40,487 nt of DNA from Candidatus Micrarchaeota archaeon (GCA_013425375.1 JACCLH010000086.1:1-40487); one strand, 5' to 3'; shown: positions 1 to 31,172, counted from the stretch's first letter. Made by a program: numbers and translations. Notes: generated from the sequence alone by a model not told the origin.

Positions 1-135
1 ATAAGCCGCGACCTGAACGCCGCGCTCAATATACTCGCAAGAGCTACCGGTGGAACGCCGGAAAGTAACGCTTGTGGAGACGTCTTAATAGAGATGTCCG
101 TGAAACAAGACGCCACGGGCTTTAGCCCGTGGTAG
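1..135 (+). mobile_element. tnpB: 3' terminal fragment of an IS200/IS605-family tnpB (OrfB, RuvC-like nuclease) gene, cut by the window edge
   Basis: Frame +1 reads without stops: ISRDLNAALNILARATGGTPESNACGDVLIEMSVKQDATGFSPW, then TAG at 133-135. RDxNAAxNI matches the C-terminal RuvC-III motif of TnpB/OrfB proteins. It is absent from the ORF track because it is partial and short. Confidence 0.7.
113..132 (+). repeat. Perfect hairpin CCACGGGC-TTTA-GCCCGTGG ending at the tnpB stop; candidate IS right-end or guide-RNA scaffold stem
   Basis: An 8-bp inverted repeat with a 4-nt loop is read directly. IS200/IS605 ends carry subterminal hairpins, and the TnpB guide RNA overlaps the tnpB 3' end (established knowledge). 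The assignment here rests on position only. Confidence 0.35.
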
Positions 136-144
136 TTCACAAAA

Positions 145-1056
145 TCACTTCGCCTTGGCGAGGACGGCTACCATGGCCCGTATCCCATCCGCCAGGGGCC
201 GTGGCGAGAATCCAAGGTCGCTCCTTGCCCTTGAGCAGTCGAACACGCGGTCATATCCTAGTATGGAGACGTGCTCTGCGGTGAGGACCGGCTTTCCCTT
301 TTTTGTCAACTTATATATCGCTTCTCCTGCCACAGCCATGAACATCGCGAGCGGAAGCTGGACAGATTTTTTTGGTGGTTCCACGCCGAGGTCCTGCGCC
401 GCTATCCGGTATATATCCTTCTGGGCGAGCGGCTCGCCTGCTATGACATATGTGCCTTTGCCCCTGCCCACAGCCGCCACCACTGCCGCTGCGACGTCAT
501 CAACATGGACAAAAGGTATCCTGTTGGTCCCCTTGCCTATGCTCCTCATCCTGCCCTTCCTGATCATGTCAATCACCTTGGCATAATCATCGAACTGCGG
601 GCCATAGATGGTGCTTACCCTGAGGATGACATGGTCAGGCCATTTCTCCACTATCTTCTCGGCCTGGTATTTGGAACGCGCGTAATCAGAATCCGGATGG
701 GCCTCGGTGCCCTCGTTGGCAGGCATGGAGGCCAGCTTCTTGCCATACACCGATACTGAGCTGGCAAAAACAATCCTGCACCCTTTCGGCAGGGCATCCA
801 CCAGCCTCCAGGTCAGGCTGACATTGGAGTCATGGAGCGCTTTCTTGTCCGTGGTATCCACAGAACCTGCCAGGTGGACCACGACCTTCGCGCCTATAAG
901 GATGATCTTGAGCTGGTCAGTGGAGAAATCAGTGACCACCTCGTCCTTCAGGCCGCCTGGTTCTCTCACGAGCGGTATGGCGTCTGGCAGCATGGCCATG
1001 ACTGCCCTTCCCAGCCTGCCTGTGGCTCCGGTGACGAAAACCTTATTGCCTGCCAT
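145..1056 (-). CDS. NAD(P)-dependent epimerase/dehydratase (extended SDR family)
   Basis: 303 aa with the N-terminal Rossmann motif VTGATGRLG and a catalytic YxxxK (YARSKYQAEK). The ATG at 1056 overlaps the stop of the upstream ThyX-like gene by 14 nt, which suggests an operon. Confidence 0.8.
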   Translation of the reverse strand: MAGNKVFVTGATGRLGRAVMAMLPDAIPLVREPGGLKDEVVTDFSTDQLKIILIGAKVVVHLAGSVDTTDKKALHDSNVSLTWRLVDALPKGCRIVFASSVSVYGKKLASMPANEGTEAHPDSDYARSKYQAEKIVEKWPDHVILRVSTIYGPQFDDYAKVIDMIRKGRMRSIGKGTNRIPFVHVDDVAAAVVAAVGRGKGTYVIAGEPLAQKDIYRIAAQDLGVEPPKKSVQLPLAMFMAVAGEAIYKLTKKGKPVLTAEHVSILGYDRVFDCSRARSDLGFSPRPLADGIRAMVAVLAKAK

Positions 1057-2701: not shown

Positions 2702-2782
2702 GAGCGTTTCTCGCCAAAAGGGTTTTTATGCTGATTGCTCGGGCTTTTTAAATTGTTTCATTTAAAGACAACTAGTGGTTTG

Positions 2783-3343
2783 ATGAAGCACACACTCCTC
2801 AAAAAAAGCATCGTTGCAACAGGCGTGACCCTCGCTCTACTGACTGGCTGCGGCACTGCCCATGCAAAACCGATCAAATACCCGCTTCCCGCTCCAACCG
2901 CCACATGCGTTCTCGCAGCCGCTCCTCTTGTAGAGAACTGGAGCAGGGGCACCTGCATTTTCAAGGACAACGCCCTTACCTACAAAGGACCCAATTCTGA
3001 AAAAACGATTGAGCTTGATACGAAGGTTGAAAATCCGCTGAAAATCATCTGCTCGGACGAATACACCGCGATATTGACTCCTGACAGGGTCGTCATCTCC
3101 CTGGGCGGCAAACGGCTCATCACCGACCAGGTGGAGGTGTTCTGGACGTTCATGGAACGCTTCTATCCTTCCAACATGTATGCGATTGGCATCACAGAGA
3201 TAATGGCTGAGGGCATCAAAGAGGCATCAATAAAGGCCCATAATCTTGTGATCCAGACAAGTAACCGGGAATGGACTGTGGATCTGTCCTATCCTGCGAA
3301 ATGGGAAATTATAAATAATATGGGATTTATACCAAAGTGGTGA
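2783..3343 (+). CDS. Putative secreted lipoprotein, function unknown
   Basis: From ATG 2783 the protein begins MKHTLLKKSIVATGVTLALLTGCG: a basic n-region, a hydrophobic core and a lipobox-like LLTGC. TTTAAA boxes at 2747-2752 and 2761-2766 favour this ATG over the TTG at 2735 used by the ORF track. Confidence 0.6.
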   Translation: MKHTLLKKSIVATGVTLALLTGCGTAHAKPIKYPLPAPTATCVLAAAPLVENWSRGTCIFKDNALTYKGPNSEKTIELDTKVENPLKIICSDEYTAILTPDRVVISLGGKRLITDQVEVFWTFMERFYPSNMYAIGITEIMAEGIKEASIKAHNLVIQTSNREWTVDLSYPAKWEIINNMGFIPKW

Positions 3344-11098: not shown

Positions 11099-11572
11099 AT
11101 GCCAGCATCTATTGTCCGTGATATTATGCTAGAGCCTATGAGTATCGTTTTCACTAAGGCGGAGATAAGCAGGATGAAGGAAGGCATCCCGAAGGGCGTG
11201 GAGGTCCGGCTCAATGTGGATGCGATGGATCCTGTTGACAACAACTCGCTCACCATGGGATTCACATACCTCGTCACTTACCTCCCAGAAATGGCCCTGG
11301 TCAGGGTCGCTGGCAAGGCGAACTGCAGGGACTCCCCTGAGAACATCAAGAGGGCGCTCATGGAATTCAGGAAGAACAAGGCGCTTCCTGCGGACCTGGG
11401 CGCCACTGCGCTCAATATGATAAACACCAACACCGCGGTCAATGTGATATTCTTCATCAGGCCCTTCGGCCTGATGCCTCCTTTTGTGCCGCCGCCCATC
11501 ATCCCTGCGGCAGCAATTACGGCTGCGGCATCGCCTCCGGCCAAGCCAGCGGTCAAATCAAAGGGCCGCTGA
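11099..11572 (+). CDS. Hypothetical small protein with a Pro/Ala-rich tail
   Basis: 157 aa. A TTTTATTAAA box at 11088-11097 is too close to ATG 11099, so ATG 11126 (MLEPMS...) may be the real, leaderless start. No domain could be assigned securely. Confidence 0.5.
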   Translation: MPASIVRDIMLEPMSIVFTKAEISRMKEGIPKGVEVRLNVDAMDPVDNNSLTMGFTYLVTYLPEMALVRVAGKANCRDSPENIKRALMEFRKNKALPADLGATALNMINTNTAVNVIFFIRPFGLMPPFVPPPIIPAAAITAAASPPAKPAVKSKGR

Positions 11573-11645: not shown

Positions 11646-14600
11646 CTAGAATTGGCCGCCTACGGAAACGCCGACCTCTACTGGCACTTTGCCTTCCTTG
11701 CCTATATACGGTTCTACCCTGGAAACGTCCTGCGCGTTTGACTGGTCAAGGCCAGCGCCAGTGATCGCGCGGCCCCTGCGGAAGTATGCCTTGATATAGT
11801 ATGACGGGCCGAGGCCGCCGCCATAGTCCGGGGTCCACTCCACGCCGACCGCGGTCTCGCCCACCAAAGTGCTGGTTTTTTTGCCTGTTGGCGCCACAGC
11901 TGTTGTTGTCTCTGAAGCCGGTGGTGTCGGCCTCCAGCCGGTCTCCGTGCCCCCTTCGACGTAGAAATGGACGCTGAGCTTGTCGCCTGCCACGAAATCC
12001 GCCTTGGCAACAGTGATGCCGTAGCCGACTGTGGTCCTGCTGATCTCGCTGATGTCGCAGCCGAGCGTCATGCACGCCTGCTTCAGCTCGTCCTTGTCTT
12101 CGAACACGCCACTGCTCGCCACGAATATCTTGTCCCCTTTCAAGAATATGTAGTGGGTAATCGCTTGGTTCATGGTGGATGTATTTATCAGATTTATGTT
12201 GTGGGAGAGCACCACCTTGTATTCATTCCACCTCAGGTCCCCGTACTGCTTTGTGCCGTAGAAAATGCCTCCGAGGAGCTCCTGCTTGTAGTCCTGGAAT
12301 ATGCTCGCCAGGTAGCCTGCGCTCCAGTTGTGCGAGAAGTCATGGTATTTGTAGGCACTGGTCTCAAGCGGCAGGGTGAGCGAGCCGAATGCCCGCTGGG
12401 CTGTTAACCACAGCCCCCTCCTGTCTCCTGAGAACGTGAACTTGTAATCTCCGCTCTCGGTTGCATCTATGTCCAGGGTGAAGACGTCCATGCCTATCAT
12501 ATGGTTGTTTGGGGGCCTCAGCCACTCCTGTAGGTCCTCCTCGTCGCCTACCTTCAGGGCGCCCCTTGCCGGAGCCCCCTCAGCACCGCCGCCGGCCCTC
12601 ACGGTTATCGGTGTGTGCAGCACATAGTATCGCTTGTGGGTGTCATTCTTGCCCTCTGTGGCCAGGTGCGTGCCAAGATACACGTCGTATCTCTCAGGCT
12701 GGTGGCCTTCCCTGGTGTCGGCATCCTTCACTGCCACCAGGACGTCCAGCAGGTTCCTCTCCATGAGAAGCCTGACCTCGGCGCCGGTGAGCTCGCTCTT
12801 CTTCCCGATACCTAACGGCATCGCGACCTCCTCCACTATATGCCTGGCCACGCTTTTCTCCTTGGCGGCCTCGGCTGTGAACTGCGCTACCATCTCGTTG
12901 TCAGGCAGGAGCATCCAGTCAAGGTCAGTGGTCATCTCCCTCACCGCCTCTATCATCTCAGCAGGGTATGCCAGCAGCAGCCGCTGCATGTCCGGCTCGC
13001 TCTTCTTTATCTCCAGGAACACATCCCTGAGCGCCACGGCAGGGTCCTTGGTGGTCCTCTCCTCCAGGATGTTCTTAATCCTGGTCACGCTTGGGTTGCC
13101 CTCGTCCAGTCTCTTGGCGAACTCCCGCTTTATCTCGCTCTCAGGTCTCACCATCCATCCGAACGTGTCACGGGCCTCTTCCACTGCCTTGACCAGGTCC
13201 TTGCCATACACATCCCGGAGCACCAGCGAGTCATATCCTATGCCGCCCATCTCGCGGTAGCAGCGGCGCACTGCGTCCAGCTTGCCCAGCCCCTGTGTGA
13301 GCACCGCCTCCTGCTCATAGCGCACCAGGCCGTGTAGCGGCCACCTCAGGCCACCACCGATGTCGATGTCAGTGTAGAATGTGTCTTTCCTCACGATGGG
13401 GTGGGTGTAATCCGTTCCTGTGGTCGCGCCATTGGCGTCCGCCTTCTCCCGCGCGACCAGCGCAGTGGGGAACATATAGGCATGGGCTGCCAGGTCCACG
13501 AACCCGATTGTGGGCTTGCCGAATATGTACACCGAATAGAGGCCGCCATAGTTTGCCTTGTCTGCCGCGCTGTACCTCCCTGAAGCTATGGTATAGAAGC
13601 TGTTCGCTTCGCCATTGTAGCCATAGCCCAGCGAAACCTTCCATACTGACTTGGCCAGCGACGCATTGAGGTTCTCCGAGAGCGCCTTCAGGATGGACGC
13701 CTCCTCGGTCGGGTTCGCCTGTATGTCAGCCATGGCGTCGTTTATCCTATTGTACATGCTGTCGAAGTTGGGCGCCCTGCTGCCTCCGACGAGAATGTTG
13801 TGCCTCTGGGCCCAGTACATGAACAGCAGGGACGCATAGTTCGGATCCGGCCTGGACGGCGCGTTCTTCTTGTCAGTGATATAGTTGCCGGCAGCATCCT
13901 TGACCGTGTAGTCCTCCAGCTGGCTATAGAGGTAGCTGGCGGCTATCAGGTGGCCGGTCTCTTCGGCGCGGTTCTCAGACCATTGGTAGAACCGCATCAG
14001 GAAGTCCTTCATGCTGGAGTACATCTTGTCCGCATCCTCCATCGCTACCCTGGCCTGGCGCAGGAGGTCCACCTCTGTGCGCGCTACGGTGATGCCGTAG
14101 GCGTCCGTTCTGTAAGCTGTTATCGGGGCCTCTTTCCTGAACCTTCCGGCCACGCTCTGCGGCCAGCCCTTGAGCGTCTTTGTGCCTTCGCCTACATAGC
14201 CCCACCCGGCCCGGAATTCCCATGTGTTCTCCAGCGGCTTCAGGGCAAGGGTCTGCCTGATGTACTGCACGTTGGCCTCTGCGAACGTGGTGCCCTTCAT
14301 CTTCGCCTCATATTCGCCTGCCCTGGGCATGGCCTCCAGCTTCCTGCCTTGTGCATCGTAATATCTCATATCCGCGGTCTGGACGCCGTTGAATAAGAGC
14401 ACGTGGACGTCCCTCTGGCTCTGGTCGTCCCGTATGCGCGTGAAAGCTGAGCCAATGGCCTCCTCCTGGAACACAGGATCCATCGTGCTCATGTTCCTGG
14501 TGAGCTGGCCCACGCCCAGCGCGGAGAAATTGTCGCCCTCGCCGGTCGGTATGGTGAATCCCACTGCCATGCCGCTGAAGCCGCCCTCTGCTTCTTTTGA

Positions 14601-17600
14601 GGTGAACTGCTTCCTGCCTATCATCTTGGCAGAAGCGAGCCAGTAGTCCTCATCCCCGCCGCCATAGGTGTAGTTCAGGAGCTTGGCCCTGGTGTCGTAG
14701 CCATAGGCGACCTGCTCCCAGCTGCCGTCCGGCTTGAACAGTATCAGCCTTGTCTTGACGCGGCCCTCGCCTTCCTGGATGGGCTTCGCCTTAGTGCCCG
14801 CTGCTGGCGGCACTTGCGGCGGCAGGCCTGGCAGCTCCGGAATGTACGTTCCTGAGAAGAAAAACAGCATGTCAATGCCTTTTGTCTTGGCGAGCCTGGA
14901 GCATGTTTCCATCATGCCCTTGAAGCTGCTCTGCGACTCATATGACTTCTCCACCAACGCGCCGGTCTCGCCCACCTGCGGCACTGTGGTCTCTGCCCAC
15001 GCGCCGGTCATCTGAAGGGTGCCTGAATGCAGCCCTCCCTGTTCCTCTGGCGGCAAGCCCTCGGGCTTCAGGGAATTCACCACGCTCTCGCGCATCGCCT
15101 TGCCTGCCTTCTTGGCATCCACTATCGTGACCCCGATGATTTTACCATCTTCGTCCTTGGCTATCTGCATCCCTGTGTTCGCTGCATAGGCAGCGGTGTC
15201 GGTGACGCTCGCGATCTCAGTGTATATCAGCTGGCGCAGGGAGTCTGCCATCTTGGCCTCATCATTGGCATAAACGCTGTCCATGGCCTGCTGGGCCAGC
15301 TTGCCGTCCTCCTTGGTGTCCTTCCTCACCTCGGCGACCGTGCTGTCCAGCAATGCGCTGAATCCACCATGCTCTTCATAGAACGCCTTCGCCTCTTCCT
15401 GGAGCTGGGGCGCCTTCCTTTTTTCCTCTTCCAGTTTCTTCTTCTCCTGCTCCTTCCAGCCCTGGCTGCTCGGCAGGTATGTGATGATCGGGCCCACCAT
15501 GGGGTAGGGCACGCCGCCTGCGGCCGCCGTCACGTCCACTCCCTGCGTCACCTGGCCGCTCGTGCTTTCGCCTTCCCTGCCGGTGCCTATCTTGGTATCG
15601 AGCATCTCCCATTTCGCTTCGCCGGTTCCGCCTCCTGTGGGTGTCTGCAGGCCGCCCATGGCGCCGGTGCCGCCCTTTTTGGTGGTGGATGTCTCTGCGC
15701 CTTCATATCCGTAATAGCCCGCCGCATGTCCGTATCCGCTCAACAGATAGTCTGAGTACTCGGTAGGTATGGGCGGGAACATATGGCTGAGCATTCTCAG
15801 GTAGCTGGACATGCCCATGCCGCCTATCTTGAACTCGACCGGCACCCCGAGGTTGAGCATCAGGGCCGTTTCAGGCAGGAGCTGGTACTTCATCCTCGCG
15901 AACTGCCGCGTGGCGTCTGAATCCACAAGGAACCCTCCAAGGCGGAGCTGAGCCCCGACCGGCGCAATGCCGTGCGGCACAGGCACCTCGGGCCTCAGCG
16001 GCTGTTCGTAGAGCCCAGGTATCTGGTCCAGTTCCTGGCCCCAGTAAATCCCTTTTGTGGAGTGGAAGAGCGGGTTCTCCTGGCCCCAGTTGAGGGCGGT
16101 CCGCTCGGCCATCCTCCTCTCCTCATCCTCCAGGTTGTGGTGGTCGAATGTGCTCACGCGCTTCAGGAAATCGCTCTCTATGCTGGCGAACACTTCCAGG
16201 AAATACCTGCGCCTGTGCGCGATGCTGTAGGATGTCATCGCTGCTTCCTGCTGGTAGAGCCTGGAGACCGTGGTCCTGAACTGCTGTAGTCCGGCTATGA
16301 GGATCTCCTCTGTCTGGGCGCCCTGGACCATCGCTGGCAGGGCCTGGAGCAGGAAGGGCCCGATGAGGTAGGTGTCGCGGTCGGACAATGTGAGTATGGT
16401 GTCCATGAGCGCGTCCACCGCCTTGCTGCCGAACGCGGTCGGCCCGCCTATCTCGTTGATGGCCAGGCCTATGTAGAAGGCATCTATCACCGAGAGCCGC
16501 GCCTTGAGGGCGTCCAGTTTCTCGTCGCTGAGGTCATCTGCGGTTTCAGGGTGGAAGTTCCTGTCCTGCCTGTCCTGCCGGTATCTCTTCTCCAGCTCTG
16601 TGTAACCGCCCTGGCAGCGGCTGATGAACGCCTGGCCGGATGGACTTTGTAGGAATCCTGCGAGCATGTCTGCGGTGAACCTGTTCTCTTTTATGGCTCT
16701 TGCCTTGGCCTCCGGCAGCATGATCGCGCCGGATGATATCTCCATTATCTTCTGGCCGAGCAGCTGGAGGTTGAGGTACTGGTTGAACAGGAAGTCGTTG
16801 CTGCCGAACTGCTCGCGGTAGAAGTTCACAGCCCTGGCGAAATCAGCGCCCACCCTCTCCGGAGGCGAATACAGGGAGAGCGCCTCTCCTACCATGCCAT
16901 AGACGCGCGGTATCATTTCCTGCACATGGAGGAGGTTCTTCATGAAGTTCGTCCTTCCGACCATGGGGCCGCTCTCGAACGCGCTCTGCAGGGCCTCAAG
17001 GACGGCAGGATCCAGGGAGGCGAGGTCCTTGGGCGAGGCGTCCAGCCTCTCAAGGAACGCGAACTTGCTTAGGTTGTCCTTCACATAGTCCACAAGCCGC
17101 TCTCCGTACATCCTCTTCTGCTGGAAAAAGTACAGCTCGTACATCTCCTTGACGCCCTGTTCGGCTGCCTTGGCCGGCTTTGATTTGATGAGGCGGTATA
17201 TGCTCGTGAGCGAGCGGAAGAGCTCCTCGTTCTGCTTGCGGTAGGCGCGCATGAGGGACTTCACGCTCTGCGAATAGGCAGCGGGATACGCCTGGAATAT
17301 CCTGGCCCTGGCAATCTCATCCACGCTCTGCAGCTCGGCAAGGCCTGCGGTCGGGCTGTTCATGGCCCCCAGCTTGCCCTTCTGGTCCTCCACAACCTTC
17401 ACGAACCTCTCGCCGAACAGCTTCACCATCGCATTGCGGTTCTCGGTTTCGGTCGGGCTCACGATGGCCAGGTAGCACCGCTTCACTATGGCTGCGAAAA
17501 GCTCGTTCTCGCCGAGGGCGAGGTCATCTATGCCGGCGCCTTTCTCAAGCAGCTTGAGGTGCTTGGCCTGCGCCTCCAGTTCGGTCACGAACTGCGGGCC

Positions 17601-20480
17601 ATACATCTCCATCAGCGTTGCCCGGTCCTGCCATCCTGTGCCGCTCACGAGCGAGTTGTAGGCGCCTCCGAGCGCCTTGAAATAAGCCGGCTCGTCGACT
17701 CCGATGATGAACTGGAACAATCCGGGGTTCGCATGCCTGGTGACCGCGGCGATGACATCTCCGAGCACCCTCCCCTTTTCAGGGTTCTTGGTGGAGAGGG
17801 TCGTGTAGTCGCCAACGAGATCGTTGAGATCCCGGCGCAGCTTGGCCAGCTGCTCGCGCATGAGCGATGATTCCAGCATCGGCGCGTTCTGGAGGTCCTT
17901 CCCGGTCTCTGCCAGGTGTATCATGCTGAAGGCAATCCTCACGGCCAGCCGCAGCTGCTCAGGCCGTATGATGCTGCCGCTCGCAGGGTCTATCAGGACC
18001 CTCTGCCGCTCGACCAGCCGGTTGAGCTGGGCAGAATCCATGGTGGATTCGGCTTCGGTCAGGATGGTGTCGCTTTCGCGCCTCCACTCGCGTATCCACT
18101 CGCTCATCATGGGCCGGACCGGCTCCATCACGCGGTCGGAGAGCTGGCGTTCCACCCCGCTTATGAAGCTGTCTATGCTTCCGTGCCTGGAGACTATCTC
18201 ATTCCTGAGCTGCTCTGCCAGGCCTGCCTTCATGCCCGGCCGTTTAGTTGATTCAGAATCAGCTATCGGTTTGTTGAACGCGTCACCGTAGGCGTCCCTG
18301 ACGTCCTGCTGGGCCAGCCCTCCCCTCTCGCCTACCGCACGCCTTGTCACTGCGATGGCGCGGAGGAACTGGGATGGTATTATGGGATATGTGTTGGCGA
18401 GCAGCTTCTGGGTGTAATCATCTTTCTTTTCCCTAAGGTCCTTCTCTATGCTGGCGACACTTCCTGAGAGCCATCCCAGGGCCGCCCTGTTCCCTTCCAC
18501 ATAGGACACCAGCGTCTTGCCATAGCTCCTTTCAAGCCGCGCGCGGTCAGGGGCGGCCTTGCCTGTCTCGCCATATATGTCCTTGAGCGCATAGGCGAGC
18601 GTGGTCTCGCTGTATCCTGCCGAGGTGTTCAGCTGGTCCATGAACCTGCTTCCCATGTTGGCGTTCATCTGCTGCCCTATCTGCACCATCGGCCTGAGCA
18701 GCCATTGCATGCTGTCCAGGTTATCCTTCACAGCCTTCACGAGGTCCTTGCCGTACTTGCTCTCTGCCTGGCCGACTGCCTGCCTAACTGCCTTGACCTT
18801 CTGGTATGCCTTGGAAACCGACTCACAGACATCCCTGCTCCTTAGGTCATACTTGGACGCGAGCGCCACTGCGAGCGGGTCTGTCCTTCCCCTGCGCCGT
18901 ATCTCGGCCTGTATCTGCTGCGGGGTGTTGTCCAGCCAGGACAGCTGTTCAAGGTTCTTGCCGATCGTGTCAAGGAGGTCCGGGTCTATGGTGTGCTGGG
19001 CTATCCTCTCCTGCGAGACCGCGGCATAGGCCTCTGCCACGGCGCTGCCTGCCGAAACCCCGGCCGGGAGCTTCAGTGCCGCTGCCTTGAGCGCCTTGGC
19101 GCCTGCGTCATTCATCCTGGCCCGGTTCTCCATCTCGTCGTCGATTTCGCGCGGGTCGCGCACGAGCCAGGCAAGGTCGGCGATGTTGGAGCTCACCAGC
19201 TGGACCAGCCTGGTTCCGTATTCCACCCTCAGCCGCTCCATGTCCGGGCTGCCCATGGCCAGCTCGGCATATATGTCCCTCACCGCTATGGACAGGATGC
19301 TCCTCTCGAACACCTTGTATATCTGCGAGTATAGCCTGCCTGTCTTCATCTCCTGGGCATAGAGCGCGGTGAATGCGCCCCAGAATTCCTCGTTGTGCTG
19401 GACTAGGGGCATCTGCACGACTCCGTCCACCACCTCGGCCAGCTGGCCGTTGAGTATGGCGTTGAACGCATTGAGCGCGATGAGGTCGCCGTTCTCGCCC
19501 ACCTGCCTCATGAATTCCATTGCCCTGGCGGCCATGCCATGGGCGACCAGCTTGAGGAGCGGGTCCACGACATCTGTGCCCTCGTCCTTCCTCAGCCGCT
19601 CCACGCTTTCAACGTTGCCGGATGCTGCCGACTGGTACACTGTGGCGACCATGTCCGTGAATCTGGCTGGCTTCATCTCCCCCTCGCGTTTCGCGGCATA
19701 GGCCTTGATGATGGCCGTGAGCTTCGGGTCAGGGTATATCCTCTCCAGGAACTGCTTCTCAAACTCCTGCAGGAAGGCCGCGGACGGGTTCGCGTCGAAT
19801 ATGGCCCTGAACGTGGTCTTGTCTCCCGGGTCACCTGTGAGCATGAATTCGTGCAATGCCGTGATGGCCATCCGCGCCTGCTGCTCAGGCCTCCGGCTCG
19901 CGAGTTCTGCGGTCAGTTTCTTGCCGTATCTCTCTGCTATGTCAGGGACAGCCTTCCGCTCCTGCTCTTTCATGAGTTCCTGTCTGGCCGCGTCCTCATT
20001 GGACATTCCGGCCCGCACGTCTGCCCTCACCCTGCCTATCGCTGTGTCTGCCTTCACGGCCTTTGCCTTATCCATGTTCTTTACGAACGCGGCCACTTCG
20101 CTGTCGCTGACAGCTATGGCGTTGAGCTCGGAGCGGATGTTATGCACCCTGGTTATGAAGTCTACCTTGACCTCAGGCACCATGATGCCGATATCATCGT
20201 TATACGCCTCCAGGAGCGGGGCGACCTTACTATCGCTTTTCAGCTTGTCCCACTCGTTGCGGAGCGTGCCCATGAACAGCTGATTCTGGTTGAGTGCCTT
20301 CTCCTTGCCATCCTGCGGGTCCCTGGCATTTGCGTTGTATATCTTCCAGAAGTCGGCCCATCTGGCCTCATTGGCGTCGACTATGTAAGCGCGATACGCC
20401 TGGGCCGCCTGAACAGCCATGCCTTTGATCCGCGAAGCTTCCAGCGCCTCTGTACCTATCTTTTTGACGGGCTCTGCCAT
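11646..20480 (-). CDS. Giant protein E (about 2944 aa), unknown function: helical repeat-rich N-terminal half, shared module, beta-rich C-terminal part
   Basis: An uninterrupted ORF. The start is set at ATG 20480 because TTTAAATA lies 21-28 nt upstream, giving leaderless geometry. The track start at 20753 adds 91 aa. I spotted no hydrophobic helices or catalytic motifs by eye. Confidence 0.8.
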   Translation of the reverse strand: MAEPVKKIGTEALEASRIKGMAVQAAQAYRAYIVDANEARWADFWKIYNANARDPQDGKEKALNQNQLFMGTLRNEWDKLKSDSKVAPLLEAYNDDIGIMVPEVKVDFITRVHNIRSELNAIAVSDSEVAAFVKNMDKAKAVKADTAIGRVRADVRAGMSNEDAARQELMKEQERKAVPDIAERYGKKLTAELASRRPEQQARMAITALHEFMLTGDPGDKTTFRAIFDANPSAAFLQEFEKQFLERIYPDPKLTAIIKAYAAKREGEMKPARFTDMVATVYQSAASGNVESVERLRKDEGTDVVDPLLKLVAHGMAARAMEFMRQVGENGDLIALNAFNAILNGQLAEVVDGVVQMPLVQHNEEFWGAFTALYAQEMKTGRLYSQIYKVFERSILSIAVRDIYAELAMGSPDMERLRVEYGTRLVQLVSSNIADLAWLVRDPREIDDEMENRARMNDAGAKALKAAALKLPAGVSAGSAVAEAYAAVSQERIAQHTIDPDLLDTIGKNLEQLSWLDNTPQQIQAEIRRRGRTDPLAVALASKYDLRSRDVCESVSKAYQKVKAVRQAVGQAESKYGKDLVKAVKDNLDSMQWLLRPMVQIGQQMNANMGSRFMDQLNTSAGYSETTLAYALKDIYGETGKAAPDRARLERSYGKTLVSYVEGNRAALGWLSGSVASIEKDLREKKDDYTQKLLANTYPIIPSQFLRAIAVTRRAVGERGGLAQQDVRDAYGDAFNKPIADSESTKRPGMKAGLAEQLRNEIVSRHGSIDSFISGVERQLSDRVMEPVRPMMSEWIREWRRESDTILTEAESTMDSAQLNRLVERQRVLIDPASGSIIRPEQLRLAVRIAFSMIHLAETGKDLQNAPMLESSLMREQLAKLRRDLNDLVGDYTTLSTKNPEKGRVLGDVIAAVTRHANPGLFQFIIGVDEPAYFKALGGAYNSLVSGTGWQDRATLMEMYGPQFVTELEAQAKHLKLLEKGAGIDDLALGENELFAAIVKRCYLAIVSPTETENRNAMVKLFGERFVKVVEDQKGKLGAMNSPTAGLAELQSVDEIARARIFQAYPAAYSQSVKSLMRAYRKQNEELFRSLTSIYRLIKSKPAKAAEQGVKEMYELYFFQQKRMYGERLVDYVKDNLSKFAFLERLDASPKDLASLDPAVLEALQSAFESGPMVGRTNFMKNLLHVQEMIPRVYGMVGEALSLYSPPERVGADFARAVNFYREQFGSNDFLFNQYLNLQLLGQKIMEISSGAIMLPEAKARAIKENRFTADMLAGFLQSPSGQAFISRCQGGYTELEKRYRQDRQDRNFHPETADDLSDEKLDALKARLSVIDAFYIGLAINEIGGPTAFGSKAVDALMDTILTLSDRDTYLIGPFLLQALPAMVQGAQTEEILIAGLQQFRTTVSRLYQQEAAMTSYSIAHRRRYFLEVFASIESDFLKRVSTFDHHNLEDEERRMAERTALNWGQENPLFHSTKGIYWGQELDQIPGLYEQPLRPEVPVPHGIAPVGAQLRLGGFLVDSDATRQFARMKYQLLPETALMLNLGVPVEFKIGGMGMSSYLRMLSHMFPPIPTEYSDYLLSGYGHAAGYYGYEGAETSTTKKGGTGAMGGLQTPTGGGTGEAKWEMLDTKIGTGREGESTSGQVTQGVDVTAAAGGVPYPMVGPIITYLPSSQGWKEQEKKKLEEEKRKAPQLQEEAKAFYEEHGGFSALLDSTVAEVRKDTKEDGKLAQQAMDSVYANDEAKMADSLRQLIYTEIASVTDTAAYAANTGMQIAKDEDGKIIGVTIVDAKKAGKAMRESVVNSLKPEGLPPEEQGGLHSGTLQMTGAWAETTVPQVGETGALVEKSYESQSSFKGMMETCSRLAKTKGIDMLFFFSGTYIPELPGLPPQVPPAAGTKAKPIQEGEGRVKTRLILFKPDGSWEQVAYGYDTRAKLLNYTYGGGDEDYWLASAKMIGRKQFTSKEAEGGFSGMAVGFTIPTGEGDNFSALGVGQLTRNMSTMDPVFQEEAIGSAFTRIRDDQSQRDVHVLLFNGVQTADMRYYDAQGRKLEAMPRAGEYEAKMKGTTFAEANVQYIRQTLALKPLENTWEFRAGWGYVGEGTKTLKGWPQSVAGRFRKEAPITAYRTDAYGITVARTEVDLLRQARVAMEDADKMYSSMKDFLMRFYQWSENRAEETGHLIAASYLYSQLEDYTVKDAAGNYITDKKNAPSRPDPNYASLLFMYWAQRHNILVGGSRAPNFDSMYNRINDAMADIQANPTEEASILKALSENLNASLAKSVWKVSLGYGYNGEANSFYTIASGRYSAADKANYGGLYSVYIFGKPTIGFVDLAAHAYMFPTALVAREKADANGATTGTDYTHPIVRKDTFYTDIDIGGGLRWPLHGLVRYEQEAVLTQGLGKLDAVRRCYREMGGIGYDSLVLRDVYGKDLVKAVEEARDTFGWMVRPESEIKREFAKRLDEGNPSVTRIKNILEERTTKDPAVALRDVFLEIKKSEPDMQRLLLAYPAEMIEAVREMTTDLDWMLLPDNEMVAQFTAEAAKEKSVARHIVEEVAMPLGIGKKSELTGAEVRLLMERNLLDVLVAVKDADTREGHQPERYDVYLGTHLATEGKNDTHKRYYVLHTPITVRAGGGAEGAPARGALKVGDEEDLQEWLRPPNNHMIGMDVFTLDIDATESGDYKFTFSGDRRGLWLTAQRAFGSLTLPLETSAYKYHDFSHNWSAGYLASIFQDYKQELLGGIFYGTKQYGDLRWNEYKVVLSHNINLINTSTMNQAITHYIFLKGDKIFVASSGVFEDKDELKQACMTLGCDISEISRTTVGYGITVAKADFVAGDKLSVHFYVEGGTETGWRPTPPASETTTAVAPTGKKTSTLVGETAVGVEWTPDYGGGLGPSYYIKAYFRRGRAITGAGLDQSNAQDVSRVEPYIGKEGKVPVEVGVSVGGQF

Positions 20481-20500
20481 GACAGTACTTACTCCGAGGA

Positions 20501-20508
20501 TATTTAAA
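20501..20508 (-). promoter_or_regulatory. TTTAAATA TATA-like box of giant gene E
   Basis: The minus strand reads cgaaTTTAAATAtcctcggagtaagtactgtcATG. This spacing matches the other first genes in the window. Confidence 0.55.
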
Positions 20509-20808
20509 TTCGTTCCGCCGGGGAGGGCTGAGGCGCCCACGTTGACCGCAAGGAACCAGGAAAGGAACCTGGACGCCCTTGAACCTGATCTCGCCACTTG
20601 CGTCAGACAGCCTGTCACACAAGCCGCGTCAAAGAACGGCAGAAGACGCGGCTCCGGTGGCGAAATCAGGTTTGAACGTGCCCGGGTATCTTTCAATGGT
20701 CCGGACTCGGCATGATCCGCGCTCTGCCTGTGGAGCAATCTCGGGCCTGACATGAATGGGAACCTTCCAGAATTTGGCTGTCCTGGTGATATTGTGTCAG
20801 GAAAGATT

Positions 20809-20844: not shown

Positions 20845-22812
20845 TTACAGCGGGATACGGATGGTACGGCCCCTGTCGCTTTCCTTCTCCTCTGGCGGCT
20901 TCGCCTGCTGTGCCGGCTGGCCCTGGACAGGCTTCGCGACCTTGACGCCCAGCCTGTCTGCCCATGCGCCTACCGGCTCGTTCGGATTGGCCATCCTCCG
21001 TGCAACGAGCGCGACCGCAGCGATGGTCCGCATGTCTGGCATCCCATCCCTTATGAGCCTGTCGGTCTTGAGGCCAAGGACAGTGCCGGTGAGCAGCTTC
21101 ACGTCGTCCTTGAGCAAGGCGAAGCGGGAATCGTCCTTCCTTGCCGTCATGTCCATGACGAACTCCTGCACAGCTTCTGCCACGTATGTCCTCTGATCCT
21201 GTGTTGAATCCGCGCTGAGCCTGTAGGCGTCATACCCTATATTGGAGTAGTTCTTCCTTCCCCTCACGAACGAGAGGAAGCCATTGTTCTTGTGGAGATA
21301 TTCGTTGAACATCTTGTCGAACGCATCCTGTATATCCGTCCTTCCCAGCTCCTTCAGGGCCGCCTGCAGGTCTGGGTACTTCGTCTTCTTGGGATTCTCC
21401 GGATCCTTGGGTAGGTTGCGTATGATATCTACGACATCCTCGGGCTTCCCTGAGGATGCGGCACCAACTATCCTGGCCGGCAGGTTCTTCCAGTTCTCCC
21501 CTGCGAATTTCTCAAGCTCAGTTGGTTCGCGCTTCGCTGGCTCTTCCACTACCGTAGCCTCTTCGGCCGCTTCGGGCGCCTTCCACACGCTGAGCGGTGG
21601 CTGCTCCGCCACCATCTTCTCCAGCGCCGCCTCTATCTGCTCCTCTTTTTTCCCTTTCTTCGTCAGGCTGCTCCTCAGGTCCTCAATGTCTTTCCATATA
21701 TAACCGCGCCTGATATAGAGTGCTGCTGCGATTATGGTCTCGCTGTCCATCTGCTCTGGCTCTTGGACATAGGGGCGAACGAAACCCGCCCTCTCCTTCT
21801 CGGTCACATTAGGATATGTCCTGGTGCCCTCCACTTTCTCAAGGCGCTCTTTTATCCCGGTCTGCATTATCTCTTCACGGAAATCCGTGTTGCCCGGGGG
21901 AATGATTTTCAGCAGGTAGTAACGTATGAACATGTTTGCCGCGCGGATGGCGTCTGCGTCGGCATATCCGGTCAGCATGCCCTTGGATTTGTTGAGCGCC
22001 AGCTGCAATACGCCGAACTCCGGGAACATGGCCTTGCCGACCTCGCCCGAGGCCTCGGATTTCAGGAAGCTCTGGAACTTCGGTATCTGGTAAAGGGCGT
22101 TGAAGACCGCTATGGTGGCGTCCCGCTGCCCTGTCACGCGCTCTGTGCCGCGCTGTTTCTCTGCAGAGAGGAACTTGTCCACCTGAGCAGAGTTCCGGTA
22201 GAGGTTGGTTGCTGCCAGGCCGGGCGGGTCTTTCTGCTCGTCCTTCCGCGCGTTCTTGAGCATCTTCTCTATCCAGTCTATCGTCACCATTACCTGGGGA
22301 GTCTTGTGCCTGGCCTGCAGCTTGGCCTTATTCTCGGTTTCCTTGGCCTTGCCGATTTCTTCACGTGCTTCAGCTATCCTCTTCAGCGCTTCCGCTTTCA
22401 CTGCCTGCTGTCTCTCTTCCTCCTTCTGTTTCTTCTCCTTGGCCGTCTCAACACTCTCAGCTTTCTTGGGCGCCTCTGGTCTCTTCTCCTTGGGCAGAGC
22501 AGGCCTGGGTTCTGCTTTCTTCTGCGGCGCCGGCGCCTCCTCTGCTTTCCTCGCGCCGACAGGATTGATTATTCCTTTTATCCTGCTCGCCTCGGAGCTG
22601 GCCTTAATCGCCTTCAGCTCCTTGACATGGTCGCCCTGGCTGCCCTCGGCCATCTCGTACACCTGCCTGACATTTTTGATGGCCTCCTTGACCTTGGCCT
22701 CTATCTCCTCAGGCTTCGCAGGGTCTATAGTGACTCCTGCGGCCGCGGTAGTGCTGTCATTGAACTTTATGCTCAGGCTGTTGTTGGATTTGGAATAAAT
22801 CACTGAAGCCAT
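20845..22812 (-). CDS. Protein D (655 aa), soluble-looking, with a K/E/P-rich segment; unknown function
   Basis: ATG 22812 lies 4 nt after the stop of C, with AGGAGAG inside the end of C, so the two are coupled. No hydrophobic helices are seen. Residues about 85-165 are K/E/P/A low-complexity. Confidence 0.75.
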   Translation of the reverse strand: MASVIYSKSNNSLSIKFNDSTTAAAGVTIDPAKPEEIEAKVKEAIKNVRQVYEMAEGSQGDHVKELKAIKASSEASRIKGIINPVGARKAEEAPAPQKKAEPRPALPKEKRPEAPKKAESVETAKEKKQKEEERQQAVKAEALKRIAEAREEIGKAKETENKAKLQARHKTPQVMVTIDWIEKMLKNARKDEQKDPPGLAATNLYRNSAQVDKFLSAEKQRGTERVTGQRDATIAVFNALYQIPKFQSFLKSEASGEVGKAMFPEFGVLQLALNKSKGMLTGYADADAIRAANMFIRYYLLKIIPPGNTDFREEIMQTGIKERLEKVEGTRTYPNVTEKERAGFVRPYVQEPEQMDSETIIAAALYIRRGYIWKDIEDLRSSLTKKGKKEEQIEAALEKMVAEQPPLSVWKAPEAAEEATVVEEPAKREPTELEKFAGENWKNLPARIVGAASSGKPEDVVDIIRNLPKDPENPKKTKYPDLQAALKELGRTDIQDAFDKMFNEYLHKNNGFLSFVRGRKNYSNIGYDAYRLSADSTQDQRTYVAEAVQEFVMDMTARKDDSRFALLKDDVKLLTGTVLGLKTDRLIRDGMPDMRTIAAVALVARRMANPNEPVGAWADRLGVKVAKPVQGQPAQQAKPPEEKESDRGRTIRIPL

Positions 22813-22816: not shown

Positions 22817-25800
22817 TCACTCTCCTTTCTTCATCTGCCTCTTGAGGATGTCAAGACCCATCGTCATCAGGTACGGATTCGCCTTGTGGCTGTCTGTCAC
22901 CATCACCACGTCAACCGCGCCGTTCTTATCTGTCACTGCGATGCCGTTCTCGGCGAGTGTTTTCCTGAGTTTAGGGTCGCCCACCTGCCTCTTGATCTCA
23001 GCGTACACATCAGCCTCGAACCTGGCCCTGTCATCTGGGAGAGGATAGAGCGTCTTCATCATGCCACGTTCAGGGCTCTTCTCCTTCATGGCGTAATGGT
23101 TTGTGACCACGATTTGGGCCTGCACCCTCATGACAGTGTCTGCCATCCCGGAAAGTACGACCGGCGGGGCCTCCCCGGGCTTCGCAACCCTGTTGTAGCC
23201 AGGCAGCCTCACGGGTTTCGGTTTGAGCTCCCCAAGGACGATTTCCTCCATTCCCTTCTCCTTCTCCAGGGGTTTCTCCTCCCCCTTGCGCCTGGCTGAC
23301 GGGGTGGGGATGCTTATGTCCCACCATGCCTCCTCGTTCTTGTAATAATCCGCCTGTCCATCAAGGAACTTCTCAATCTTTGCCGGGTCTTTAGGAACGA
23401 CCGTTCCCTGTTCCTGCAGGCTCTTGAGGATGTTGACCACATTGCCTTTGATGGCCCGCTTGTTGTCCACCAGCCATTTGATCAAACCGCTTTCCGCGTT
23501 CCTGTTCCTGTCCCTGGTTGTCCTTTGCACAGCGAATGCGACCAGCCTTTCGTTTCCTGGCTTGAGCAGCTCCGGGTCAATCTCTGCGAGCGCAGCAGGC
23601 CCTACGCGTCCCTGCTTCATGGCGACTGCCACAATGTCTACTTCCGTGCCCTCTGCGGTGAGCGCACCGAGCGTTATAAGCTCTGCTTTGGCTGCTGCCC
23701 TCGCTGCTGCTGTTTGCGCCACATCTGCCATAGTGGCCCTGAGATTCGACACATTTGTTATGAACTTCGCAAGGTCCTCTGGTTTGCCGTATACTGTCTC
23801 TCCGCCGGATATCATTCCGTCCTCGCCTATGGTTATCTTATTGAGAGCGAACGAATTGAACGCGGCCAGATTCTCGGTGTGCCACCGCTGGTTGTACAGG
23901 ATGGCCTTCACATCCTGTTTTATTCCAGGATTCGTAATCGCGTTCTGGTCAAGCATACCCAGGAACGAGTTGTCTTTTATGCCTTCTCTGCCGCTGACCT
24001 CTATGTAAAAGCCTGCATTTTTCAGGTGCTCCCGCAGCACGACATCAATGGTTTTGGTTGCGGTCGCCTGCTGCCTGAGACCTTCAATGACTGGCTTGCC
24101 ATCTGGCCCGGTCTTAGAGAGGTTTGCCATCACATCTCCTACAAACACGGATGGTATGTTGCCTGCGCGTACCGAGTCGAACATGAACCAGTAAACAGCG
24201 GGATACCAGCGCAGCAGGCTCTCGGCCTTCATGCTTTCCTGCTTGAGCTGTCCACCGAGCACTTCTTGTCTGCCTATGGTTCCTGTGTCTGCGAGGAATG
24301 TCTCAGCTGCCACGTCCATGTATGTCAGGACAAGGCCGCGTTCCATCCAGTTCTTCCTTCTAAGGTTAGCCATGTCTGTTATGTCAAGCTGGTTTTTGTT
24401 CTCACCTGAGAGGAGCCCGTATACATTTCCGAGTTCGATATGCAAGGGTTCCAGTTTTTCCCGGAGCTTTTTCTCAATATCAATAACGCCGCTAATGTCA
24501 TTAGCCTTGGTTTTCGTTTTCCTATCTACCAGCAGCTCGTTTATGCCATCGAGCGCATCTGACATGGCATGGCCGTCAGTGAGTATCTTATCTATCTTGC
24601 GTATGTCATAGAGCACGCCCCTATCCAATAGGGCCCTTACCTCCGTCCAGTCATCCGGCCTGCGTTCGTCTCCCTGCGGGAACGTGTTCACTATATACCT
24701 GAAGAGCGCGGCCCCATCGTTCTTTCTTGGCTTCTCAGCGCCCAGCGCTTCCTTGAATTCCTTGACAAGCTCGTTCTCAGCATCGGCCATGATTTTTTCT
24801 ATCTCTGCCTGCTGCTTGAGGGTGATTGACCCGCCTATTCTCTCTGCCATCTCCTTTTTCAGGTCAGTGAAAATCTGCCTGATGTTTTTCTTCTGCTTGT
24901 CGCTGTCTTTCTCAGCCACCTGCCCCATCAGCCTCTTCTCCGCATTTTCCAGGGCAGTGACCACATCCTGCATCCGGTTGCCTTTCAGCGTCTTGCCTAT
25001 CCCATCAAGTATGTCATCCTTGACATCCACAATCGTTTCATGCACTGTTGTCCTGAGCTCTGCCTGCGCAGAGAGCCCTGTCTTGGTTATCCACCTGGCG
25101 TTCTCATCGCTGCATGCGATGCCGTACCTCTCTTTGCACATCTTTCTTCCTTCTTCCACTGTGGCAGCGCCTGTGAGCGTACGGTAAAACCCGATGGCGT
25201 ACGGACTGCCCCAATGATTCAGCGCCCACCATGCCGCTACCTGCGGCACGATGTACATCCAATTGCTTGCAGCCGCTCTTATCCTTCCGCCTGGTATGGC
25301 GCCTGCAATCCCTTTCAACCATGTTCGGCCGCCCCAATTGGTGAACGGTTCCACATTATTGAGGAATCCGCCTACCACTTTAGCCGCATCCCATATGGTG
25401 TAAAGTATGGGGTGTGCCTGCCTTGCCAGCGTGCTGCCGGTTTCATCTACTGCGCCAAGCACCTGGTTTGCCCTTACTTTGACAGCCCCTAAGATAGAGA
25501 GTTCCTCCATGAGGTCGGGCATCATCTTAGCCGTATTCCACATGGCTTCCATGCCCGGCCGCAGACTGCTATCCATCACTCCAAGCGCCGCATCCACAGT
25601 GCCGACGTTCATAGCTTCTTTGAATGCCTTCCCAGTGCCCCTCCCGTGGACATTTTCCACTGCTCTTGCCACTTCATTGCTTTTCAGGGCATTAAGCATT
25701 GTTGTTTCCAAATTGCCGTCAGGGGCTACATGTCTGATAATGCTTTGCCTCACAGCGTCGACAATCGGATTGCCTGAAGTGGGCAGATTGTTTATGAGCG

Positions 25801-28800
25801 CCTGGGACCTTGCGGTAGCCGCGATCGATTCGCCCATCACCCTTGCCGGGCCCACCGCTTTTATCTCTTCGAATCTGAGCACGACCGCTGCCTTTTCTGT
25901 CGGTGTGAAGTTCATGTCGAAGAGATTCTGGACTTCCTGGACGGCATCTATGCTTATCTTTCTCTTGGAAGCGATCCTGGAAGCATCCCGTCCGCACGCT
26001 TCCATTATGAACTTCGCATCGTTGCCCTCGACGGGTTCTATTGCGCGCGCTGCCATGTATTCGTGTGGTCTGATCCGAACCCCCTCATCCGCAGCTGCTT
26101 TTTCCGTTGAAGTCACTATTTTTAGGACAGCTTTGGCAAGTTCTGAATCTCCCGCTGCGCGGGCCTGCAGCTTGTTCGTCACGTTCCCTTGGGCATCCGT
26201 CACATTTTGTTTGGAATATATATGCCTGAGCACGGTCCAGTATCTGTTGTCTTTCGTTTCAAGCGCTTCCCTGTAGAGCGCTTTCACTATTTCCGCAGTC
26301 TTATCGGGTTGCGTTTCTAATACGTTCTCCAGCGCAGCGCCAGCCCGGTCCGCGACCTCCTCCATGCCTGGAACCACCATCTCTTCTGCTGCCGGCCCGG
26401 TTTTCATCCCCACAGCTTTCTTGATTGGTGCCAGCAGCTTTCCGAAACCGCTAGGTTGGGCCTGCGTAGGGGCAGCCGCCCCGGGCGCTGGTCCTGGTAC
26501 GGCGGTCGGACCTCCTGGAGCTGGGCCTCCAGCAGTCCCTCCTGGCGGAGTCGTAGCCTGCGCCCTGAACCTTGGCATCCCGGCTACCTCTGCTTCCCCC
26601 TTAGGCGCTTCGCCTAGCATCCTGCCCACAGCAGAAACAGGTCCTTCTCCGACAGCGATTTGCTGGCGGGCAGGGACTGCCTCAGGAGCCACCCGTAAGA
26701 GGACATCTGTTATGTTCGCATTTGCCTGGGCAAGCGCATTTGACACATCACGTGTTATCCTGCCGCCCTGAGCGTAGTCTGTGACCTTGACATTCTTTGT
26801 CAGCCCCTCTACCACACTGGCGATTTCCGGGCTCTCTGCCCTTATGGTCTCCACTGTCCTTTTGGCGTCAGCATACCTCGCCATGGCTGCAGGATTCTCT
26901 GCCCTGGCTCTTGCCGGAGTGAGCAATCCCTTCAGCAGTTCTGCCAAACGGTTGCCCTCAACAAGACCTGCGGCTTCTATTTCCCATCTCCTGCCCCTTG
27001 GCCCCCCTCCTGAAGGTCCGGACGGCTTGGGCGCAAACCCTTCTATGGCTTTCAGCAGCACCCTCATGCTGAGCTCATCCGGCTCCAGCCTTTGCGCATC
27101 AATCGCTTTCCTCACCCTCCCGTCCTTCAGCAATGCCTCCATCCTCGGCCTCATGGTTTTCGGCAATGGTGTGAGCAGGTTATCGCGCGTCTTTTTGTCA
27201 GCCGCTGCAAGCTCCTTCAGGAAGCTGAACAGCTCCTGCGGCCTCTGCAGTTCCTCTGCTGTCCTCACTGAAGGCGCCTTGGTCGGTTCTATGCTGACCC
27301 TTGCCGCGCCTTCACCGGCAGCGACATCAAGGACGCTTTCCATATCTGCCCTGGCTTCAGCCTTTCCCGTCACCCTGAGCGCAGGCCCGCGCATCACGCC
27401 TGACCCTGCCGCATAGGCGAACGGGAACAGTCCCATCGCAGCAAGAGCCACCCCCTTCGCGTTCTCTCCTGCACGGAACATCTCCACTGCCTCATATCCC
27501 ATGTAGCCTGAGAATCCCAGGCCGACGCCTAGGGCCCCATACCGCAGCCCGCGCGACAGCGCGCCCAATCTGGCAGCGTATGATGTGGCTCCGGCCTCCT
27601 CTGCCCTGATAGCAGCAGCACCGAACCTGCTGGCCATGCTTACCGCTCCCATGGTCAAAGGCACTGCGGCGAGCATCGCCCATGATGTCCAGCTGGCAGA
27701 GCCTTTCTCACGGTATTCAGTAAGAATCTGGTCCCATGATAAACTGGCGAATATGGCTGCTCCGGCAAGCTGTCCTCCAGGTATCACGCTCACTATCAGG
27801 CCTGTAGCGCCCACGCCTATGTTCGCCCAGAATTTCTTGTCCATGACTAGCTTCTGCATCTCCGTTACCGCCTCTCCGGCTGCTATCATGTCCCCTTTCC
27901 AGACAAGCTCCTTGACCCTGCGCTGCATACCCGCATAGTTCGTGAATACCTGGCTGGCTTCGTGCGCAGGTATGGTGAGCACAGAGGCCTCTATGAGCCT
28001 CGCTCCCCTGAGCATCTTCTCAATCTTCTCCTGGCTCTGGTCGCCTTTGACTATCCCGTACAAGGCGCTGAGCCTGAGCGTCCGGTATGTATCATATCCG
28101 CGGCGCGGCTTTCCAGGTTCTTTCTCCTCGTACATCTCCATGGCCGTGATGGTGTTCAGGATGGCGCTGTCATATGCCATGGCCGCTGTTGTCCAGTCCC
28201 CCTTCAGCATGGCCTTCCCTGCAGCATCCAGCTCTTTGTTTGCCGCGATGAGCTCGTTCTTGGCGAGCGATCCGGCCGGCCCGCTCAGCCTTCCCATGAA
28301 CGCTTGATTGGACCCCATCTCAGAATGGACCTGCCCATAGCCAGCAGCTACCCTCCTCTCGTTCTGCGCATCAGCCAGGAACGTTGCGACATCCCCGAGC
28401 GGGAGTTCGGCATTGCTCCTTTCAGAACCTGCCAGGGCGGCCATGAGCTCCGCTCCCTTCTTCTGGAGCCTTTCAACGGCAATGGCTTTTTGCGTTTCAC
28501 CATCGGACCTGTACAATCTCAAGCTTTCGTGCATGCTCTGCTGGACCTGCGTGATCAGGCCTCTTGTCTCCTCTATGGTCTGCTTCCTATAGGCACGTGA
28601 AGCCACCAAAGCGAATCTTTCCCAGAATGCGTTCCTGAGCTTTCCATATTCCCCGGCATCCCCTCTGTAAGCCGCTGATTCAAGCTTGTCCATGATTGTC
28701 GTGAGCGTGTCGCCCCTGAGCGTCGCATCCTTCGGGTTCTCTGCCTCGTACCTGCGCACGGATTCCATACTGGTGGTTCCTGAATATGTGCCGTCCTCTT

Positions 28801-31162: not shown

Positions 31163-31172
31163 CCATCCCACC

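Follow-up and report, generated by a model that had tools for sequence, protein, structure and literature searches.

Gene E of a Micrarchaeota genome raises the question of whether an archaeon can encode, within one giant protein, a beta-sheet domain of the kind that builds large bacterial outer-membrane barrels. The window analysed here, a stretch of 40,487 nucleotides (GCA_013425375.1, JACCLH010000086.1:1-40487), is a segment of archaeal chromosome belonging to the Micrarchaeota (DPANN); E lies on its minus strand and encodes a protein of ~330 kDa. The original prediction, made without database searches, described the C-terminal part of E as rich in beta-strands and aromatic residues, ending in Phe in the manner of outer-membrane proteins (OMPs), and perhaps forming a pore or a membrane-inserting element. 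Membrane-spanning beta-barrels that end in an aromatic signal are regarded as a mark of the outer membranes of bacteria, mitochondria and plastids, and we know of no archaeal transmembrane beta-barrel that has been characterised. The region under study comprised residues 1918-3035 of E, where residue i lies at window position 20753-3(i-1). A giant, OMP-like beta meander with insertions in its loops is predicted with good confidence for the last ~1,000 residues, and E is a real, conserved and lineage-restricted gene with an export-type leader.

The last 1,118 residues of E were modelled with AlphaFold2 (AF2) from a 42-sequence family alignment. A second target was provided by the C-terminal 957 residues of P0023, a relative that is 30% identical to E and lacks its repeat insertion. 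Both models consisted of one very large antiparallel beta meander. The E model had a mean predicted local distance difference test score (pLDDT) of 80 and a predicted template-modelling score (pTM) of 0.63, with 485 of 1,118 residues at pLDDT >=90, while the corresponding values for the P0023 model were 81.7 and 0.65. Assignment by DSSP gave ~31 strands for E, each of 7-22 residues, arranged as consecutive antiparallel hairpins. Secondary structure agreed between the two models at 84% of 829 aligned positions, and the order of strands was identical. Readings of the region as a beta-sandwich, propeller, solenoid or disordered segment were rejected, since AF2 gave long strands connected by hairpins at high confidence; neither AF2 nor the sequence searches returned ordinary soluble domains with known homologues.

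The models allowed the domain to be delimited into the elements listed in Table 1. It opens with a conserved helix and short strand in which D1961, M1962, L1963, G1968, P1972, E1973 and L1974 were invariant. In the first part of the meander most 10-residue blocks reached pLDDT 80-96, and the helical hairpin between two of its strands was kept in all relatives. The original prediction had the beta region broken by two copies of a helical repeat from the N-terminal half, and this was confirmed: AF2 placed helices at residues 2491-2677, and the profile of this stretch matched the N-terminal repeats of the homologues. Mapping with hidden Markov models (HMMs) showed that this insertion was missing from P0018, P0023, P0024, P0028, P0041, P0043 and P0044. 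Because the two beta parts are contiguous in these relatives, the core is best described as a single beta domain of ~850 residues that carries the helical repeats in a loop. The small alpha/beta subdomain that follows, kept in the P0023 model, may act as a plug or cap. Within the second part of the meander, C2894 and C2899 were invariant among four close homologues and were not found in P0023; they probably form a disulfide, which hints at an extracytoplasmic location. More generally, insertions and deletions across the family fell in predicted loops. The whole domain is preceded by an N-terminal arm of ~1,850 residues built of repeated helical modules.

Both models were compared with structures in the PDB using Foldseek, and almost all top matches were giant bacterial outer-membrane barrels or the lipid belt of ApoB100. 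The E model matched SprA (E = 8.5e-6, probability 0.98), LptD, SusC/RagA, MtrB, FyuA and SlpA; the P0023 model matched SprA (E = 2.5e-5), MtrB (probability 1.00) and SlpA (probability 0.96). The best structural matches were therefore bacterial outer-membrane barrels of 22-36 strands: SprA has 36, Deinococcus SlpA 30, LptD and MtrB 26, and SusC/RagA/BtuB/FyuA 22; ushers and porins were also matched. Barrel probabilities reached 0.93-1.00 with template-modelling (TM) scores of 0.1-0.3, and such resemblance is no evidence of homology or of a particular strand number.

Predicted viral structures in BFVD were also matched. The strongest structural match of all was A0A5P8D3I5_2, a 'viral' predicted structure (E = 7.7e-9, probability 1.00, 939 residues), which may be a mis-binned relative or another giant barrel. 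The named matches in BFVD included several OMPs of bacterial type, among them those with a barrel fold. A phage or viral origin of E was rejected on the strength of these named matches and of a tblastn search against 50,697 phage records, which gave no match.

The peptides quoted in the original prediction were all recovered in their places in the translation of 11646-20753 (minus strand), including a terminal Phe. A shift in composition after the N-terminal part was real, though moderate: G+Y+T+W rose from 14.3% at residues 94-1600 to 23.6% at residues 1918-3035 (Fisher p = 1.4e-9), and was 26% in the strand regions alone, while L+E+K+A fell from 34.5% to 30.2% between the N-terminal and C-terminal parts. 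The alternation of hydrophobic and polar residues that had been described was weak in E itself and clearer in the family profile. In the profile, for most strands (9-residue window), the apolar face had a Kyte-Doolittle hydropathy of 1.66 with 7% polar residues, against -0.82 for the opposite face; this amphipathicity was comparable to that of OmpA strands, used as a yardstick.

The terminal aromatic residue, proposed as a feature resembling the beta-signal of OMPs, proved to be family-wide and was better kept in the relatives than in E. The consensus of the family's amphipathic last strand is W-x-[ML]-[ML]-x-x-G-x-[IV]-x-[WF]-COOH. The last residue was W or F in 23 of 42 family sequences, many of these being fragments, which greatly exceeds the background frequency of F+W (5.3%); among complete copies from species-representative genomes, all 13 of 13 ended in W. 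E has an amphipathic last strand with an aromatic end, as in the OMP class, in a weaker version: its tail retains the alternation and the terminal Phe, with a last-strand pLDDT of 41-49 in E versus ~90 in P0023.

A leader that was missed at the first reading of the sequence also fits an OMP-like protein. The gene caller placed the start of E at ATG 20480, and 92 conserved N-terminal residues lie upstream of this codon. The leader is shared across the family, comprising a charged n-region, an Ala/Gly/Leu-rich stretch of 15-18 residues, an N-I-N-N-x-G-like motif and then [AV]-M-A-[EQ]-P; the motif was conserved in >20 relatives, and its invariant Met is the codon often taken as the start by gene callers. 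Because this upstream leader is conserved in homologues, the true start of E is most likely ATG 20753, and E is probably exported. As in the OMP class, the leader has the form of a Sec-type signal peptide with a putative cleavage site, and there were no other hydrophobic segments of 19 residues in E. A second isoform, without the leader, may arise from the internal Met.

The named relatives of E came from one lineage. A word-indexed search returned three full-length homologues at 33-36% identity, and HMMER, run exhaustively against 1.84 billion representatives, returned 41 proteins, of which 22 had E<1e-30 and one, P0032 (1,374 residues), was distantly related. Full-length relatives are themselves giant (1,300-3,100 residues), and all those with a source name were labelled 'Candidatus Micrarchaeota' or Bilamarchaeaceae. 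When one genome per prokaryotic species was scanned with the four close homologues as query, 15 loci were found; 13 were labelled Micrarchaeota, Micrarchaeia, Bilamarchaeum or Iainarchaeum and two only 'archaeon'. No published description of the family was found, nor, in the library searched, any paper joining Micrarchaeota with 'beta-barrel', and we take the family to be undescribed.

The fold-level reading is supported by the two models. The sheet may form a closed barrel, and its outer face may be exposed to lipid. We hold to be evenly poised the proposition that E is exported to the envelope of a Micrarchaeota archaeon, with a barrel in the outermost layer and a helical arm extending to inner partners. 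A leader that looks cleavable is followed by the ~1,850-residue helical-repeat arm and then by the predicted ~30-strand antiparallel sheet, of the kind that forms giant bacterial outer-membrane barrels. Its long loops hold the lineage-specific insertions, namely the helical hairpin, the arm repeat in two copies and the small alpha/beta subdomain. On the proposed arrangement, the sheet would close in the outermost layer of the envelope as a large pore or an anchor, with the terminal aromatic strand both completing the barrel and acting as an assembly signal. The arm could reach back to the cytoplasmic membrane and be held there by the co-encoded membrane protein C and other partners, in a manner analogous to Deinococcus SlpA and OmpM-type tethers.

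SlpA was long regarded as an 'S-layer protein'. The SlpA/OmpM tethers of Deinococcus radiodurans (8agd, 8ae1, 7zgx) have their parts in the order predicted for E, with a signal peptide, a long helical N-terminal tether and a C-terminal barrel of ~30 strands. SlpA was matched by Foldseek at probabilities of 0.80-0.96 and gave the highest query-normalised TM-scores (TMq 0.19-0.24); 8agd_A, at probability 0.95-0.96 and TM 0.22-0.23, is a case of resemblance and not of homology. Unlike SlpA, E has no SLH domain (Pfam, all of E), and archaea have no peptidoglycan for such a domain to bind. There is also no sequence similarity between them; where SlpA has a short coiled coil, E has an arm of ~1,850 residues made of repeated helical modules, the loops of E contain helical and alpha/beta inserts, and its organism has no established outer membrane.

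Three further systems share part of this architecture. SprA, the 36-strand translocon of the type IX secretion system (T9SS; 6h3i, 6h3j, 8gl6, 8gl8), is a barrel of >30 strands made by one chain, has inserted domains and is served by plug partners. Of all barrel matches it had the best E-value with each model (8.5e-6 for E, 2.5e-5 for P0023; probability 0.97-0.98). However, TM-scores were <=0.20, there was no sequence similarity, and no T9SS components are present. The T9SS is, to our knowledge, confined to diderm bacteria of the Bacteroidota type. LptD, with its plug LptE, and MtrB are large meander barrels of 26 strands closed by a C-terminal strand that ends in an aromatic residue, and MtrB matched the P0023 model at probability 1.00 (TMt 0.30); they differ from E in strand number and are not homologous to it. 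Type Va autotransporters resemble E in the unusual length of the leader, in the great size of the N-terminal 'passenger' and in the aromatic end of a C-terminal barrel, which in E is a predicted one, but have 12-strand barrels and beta-helix passengers where E has ~30 predicted strands and a helical arm.

Several observations weigh against a barrel in the outermost layer. The evidence is computational throughout. No sequence link was found from E to any OMP family, either in Pfam (E<=0.1) or in the PDB by sequence and profile; PDB searches with the C-terminal part and the family profile gave spurious helical matches to the N-terminal arm only. With Foldseek TM-scores <=0.30, the match is to a fold class and not to a specific barrel. 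The last ~50 residues of E are divergent and poorly predicted (pLDDT 37-49), and the best apolar face of its strands had a mean hydropathy of 1.35, barely above the 1.13 +/- 0.12 of within-strand shuffles. Finally, papers using freeze-etching and cryo-tomography take the outer layer that surrounds Micrarchaeota in culture to be a protein S-layer and not a lipid membrane (10.1101/2021.04.28.441871; PMC11329633). Gfrerer (2021) described a ~101-kDa S-layer protein of PF05123 type covering Ca. Micrarchaeum harzensis (10.1101/2021.04.28.441871), and Johnson (2024) described an S-layer together with an unexplained 21-nm barrel-shaped structure in the envelope of ARM-1 (PMC11329633). Sakai (2022), on the other side, reported that ARM-1, a Micrarchaeon in culture, has an outer membrane besides the inner one, agreeing with earlier tomography of ARMAN (PMC8784108). 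Of the original proposal, then, the very large beta domain is borne out by prediction, as an antiparallel meander, while a pore or membrane-inserting role is something that we can at most infer, because the envelope of these organisms is disputed. That E is itself the S-layer protein was rejected: it has no S-layer domain (Pfam), and at ~330 kDa against ~100 kDa it is unlike the SLP_Mh type of Gfrerer et al.

Where the outer layer is read as an S-layer, E could instead be a soluble, water-exposed beta wall or barrel, that is, a protein-only element of the S-layer or pseudo-periplasm such as a canopy, a collar or the barrel structure of the cryo-tomograms. The apolar face would then be buried against its own inserts, its giant partners or other copies of E, and not against lipid. 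This agrees with a literature that favours an S-layer without a second membrane, with an operon that encodes several giant partner proteins, and with the opposite strand faces of E, which are just mildly polar (-0.37), as partial burial of both faces would lead one to expect; the 21-nm structure of ARM-1, of unknown composition, would provide a place for it (PMC11329633). Yet no soluble beta-wall protein appeared among the top Foldseek matches, which were outer-membrane barrels and ApoB100, and the apolar face of the family profile, with few polar residues, and the strictly terminal aromatic are hallmarks of barrels embedded in lipid. We regard a soluble wall as unlikely.

The length of the arm lends itself to another arrangement, in which the barrel would sit in the membrane of a host while the arm remains attached to the symbiont, forming a large conduit for lipids or metabolites. 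Micrarchaeota live as ectosymbionts that depend on a host and have a reduced metabolism (PMC8784108, PMC11329633), the family is limited to this symbiotic lineage, no lipid outer membrane is documented for the symbiont, and an arm of ~1,850 residues could bridge two envelopes. Against this, no monomeric barrel of ~30 strands is known to insert itself into a foreign membrane, pre-pore or oligomerisation features were not identified, and the intercellular tubes of ARM-1 are apparently of host origin (PMC11329633). The idea is purely inferential, and we consider it decidedly improbable.

A prediction artefact was given equally little credence. Amphipathic hairpins rich in glycine and aromatic residues, combined with a shallow alignment, could push AF2 towards a barrel-like meander; the alignments held only 36-42 sequences, the five models spanned pLDDT 70 to 80, and TM-scores to real barrels were low. 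But two targets at 30% identity gave the same strand order, with 84% agreement, 485 residues of the E model were predicted at pLDDT >=90, and the family's insertions and deletions respect the predicted loops.

The ApoB100 beta belt (9e9r, 9ea7) is, like the sheet of E, a long amphipathic antiparallel meander; unlike E, it belongs to a eukaryotic lipoprotein and forms an open belt around a lipid droplet. A lipid-binding belt or groove that acquires host lipids, in the manner of ApoB100 or of Lpt/AsmA-type transporters, is very improbable: ApoB100 was the top match by E-value for E (8.3e-7) and recurred for P0023, and a single-layer sheet with one apolar face would suit the binding of lipid, but its probabilities were 0.10-0.44 and TM-scores 0.07-0.10 where barrels matched at probability 0.9-1.0, and lipid belts do not have a closing strand with an aromatic end.

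Returning to E as an envelope barrel with an arm, the neighbouring genes provide candidate partners. A gene of 157 residues is convergent with E and has copies directly downstream of E homologues in loci L001 (two paralogues), L002 (two), L004 and L006; orthologous copies were 41-45% identical, while second paralogues and the L003 copy were 24-27% identical, the latter (27%) lying ~3 kb from the E homologue. The protein ends in a conserved RPFNLxPPFxPP motif and a basic tail. It had no export signal or signal peptide and no lipobox, and no sequence match in Pfam or the PDB, identity with SecB included. It is a candidate dedicated partner or chaperone of E. A small conserved partner gene beside a barrel gene recalls LptD/LptE; however, a plug like LptE is unlikely, because the protein is without a signal peptide or lipobox.

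E lies in a cluster of giant genes surrounded by those for aTrm56, phosphoglucomutase, geranylgeranyl reductase, FtsY, prefoldin, eIF-6 and ribosomal protein S19e. Neither E nor any of the three giants beside it gave a meaningful match in Pfam (E<=0.1). Hydrophobic helices were clustered around residues 1118-1260 of protein C, where they are transmembrane helices, and around residues 748-766 of protein A, while E and the 655-residue protein had no transmembrane helices; the cluster thus appears to mix membrane-anchored with exported giants. In a search of RNA data, the locus was carried by two DNA metagenome runs only, both from freshwater sediment.

Table 1. Positions of gene E, its predicted elements, the peptides quoted earlier and the neighbouring genes (window positions count from the first nucleotide of the 40,487-nucleotide stretch).
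Feature	Window position	Strand	Residues of E	Remarks
Giant gene E	11646..20753	-	1-3035	3,035 codons plus stop; open reading frame list, translation
Export leader	20475..20753	-	1-93	Long charged n-region, then hydrophobic FLSWFLAVNVGASAL (62-76), then the family motif NLNILGVSTVMA|EP; AXA-like cleavage site
Conserved helix and short strand FKGMMETCSRLAKTKGIDMLFFFSGTYIPEL	14763..14930	-	1942-1997	Opens the C-terminal domain; AF2 H25-41, E45-50
Beta meander, part 1	13299..14762	-	1998-2485	~22 strands of 7-22 residues predicted; AF2 DSSP, also in P0023 model
Helical hairpin	13656..13757	-	2333-2366	Between two part-1 strands; AF2 H416-449 in E, H427-460 in P0023
Helical insertion	12723..13283	-	2491-2677	Two copies of N-terminal-arm repeat YG..LV..V...L.W.L.P; AF2 helices 574-760
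Small alpha/beta subdomain	12363..12785	-	2657-2797	Between the meander parts; AF2 elements 740-878, kept in P0023 model
Beta meander, part 2	11652..12326	-	2810-3034	9 strands of 10-19 residues predicted; AF2, agrees with P0023 model
Cys pair C2894/C2899	12055-12072	-	2894, 2899	Short helical loop between part-2 strands; A-C-x4-6-C
Last strand VEVGVSVGGQF-COOH	11649..11681	-		Divergent form of the family end motif
Quoted peptide WEFRAGWGYVGEGTKTLKGW	14163-14222	-	2178-2197	
Quoted peptide VWKVSLGYGYNG...	13569-13646	-	2370-2395	
Quoted peptide YGGLYSVYIFGK...	13470-13550	-	2402-2428	
Quoted peptide KLSVHFYVEGGTETGW	11934-11981	-	2925-2940	
Quoted peptide VGVEWTPDYGGG...	11766-11849	-	2969-2996	
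C-terminus of E, KVPVEVGVSVGGQF	11649-11690	-		Ends in Phe
157-residue gene	11099..11572	+		Convergent with E; conserved beside E homologues
655-codon gene	20845-22812	-		Giant cluster member without recognisable domains
Giant gene C	22817-31171	-		Giant cluster member without recognisable domains
Giant gene A	31629-36038	-		Giant cluster member without recognisable domains

Other features of these loci were noted in passing. A module of ~110 residues is common to E, A and C (residues ~1790-1900 of E, window ~15050-15405); it is an insertion in this E only, being absent from P0006 and P0008 and replaced by an unrelated repeat in P0007. Directly upstream of P0007, at L001 143-2506, lies a gene for a 787-residue protein with a GDSL-lipase-like domain, in the same position as the orphan 655-residue protein here. 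E homologues of the P0023 lineage divergently adjoin the SecD and SecF genes (L004 7065-9877 and L005 1631-4443), which fits a link with protein export. Directly upstream of P0032, at L003 9363-9959, is a gene with a peptidoglycan-binding domain (PF01471), which is odd in an organism without peptidoglycan.

The ~1,000-residue C-terminal domain of E provides a concrete target for study. That Micrarchaeota make true transmembrane barrels of ~30 strands, with an export leader and an aromatic assembly signal, unrelated in sequence to bacterial OMPs and with no known barrel assembly machinery (BAM), is possible though doubtful on present evidence. If it were true, either the outer membrane of these archaea would be a lipid one, and the question of 'two membranes' would be open again, or a monomeric giant pore would be planted in the membrane of a host for feeding. 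The family bears on the dispute over one or two membranes in these ultrasmall symbionts because a conserved, exported and lineage-wide family carries the signature of a barrel; it also bears on how barrels might be assembled without BAM, and on the connection between DPANN archaea and their hosts.

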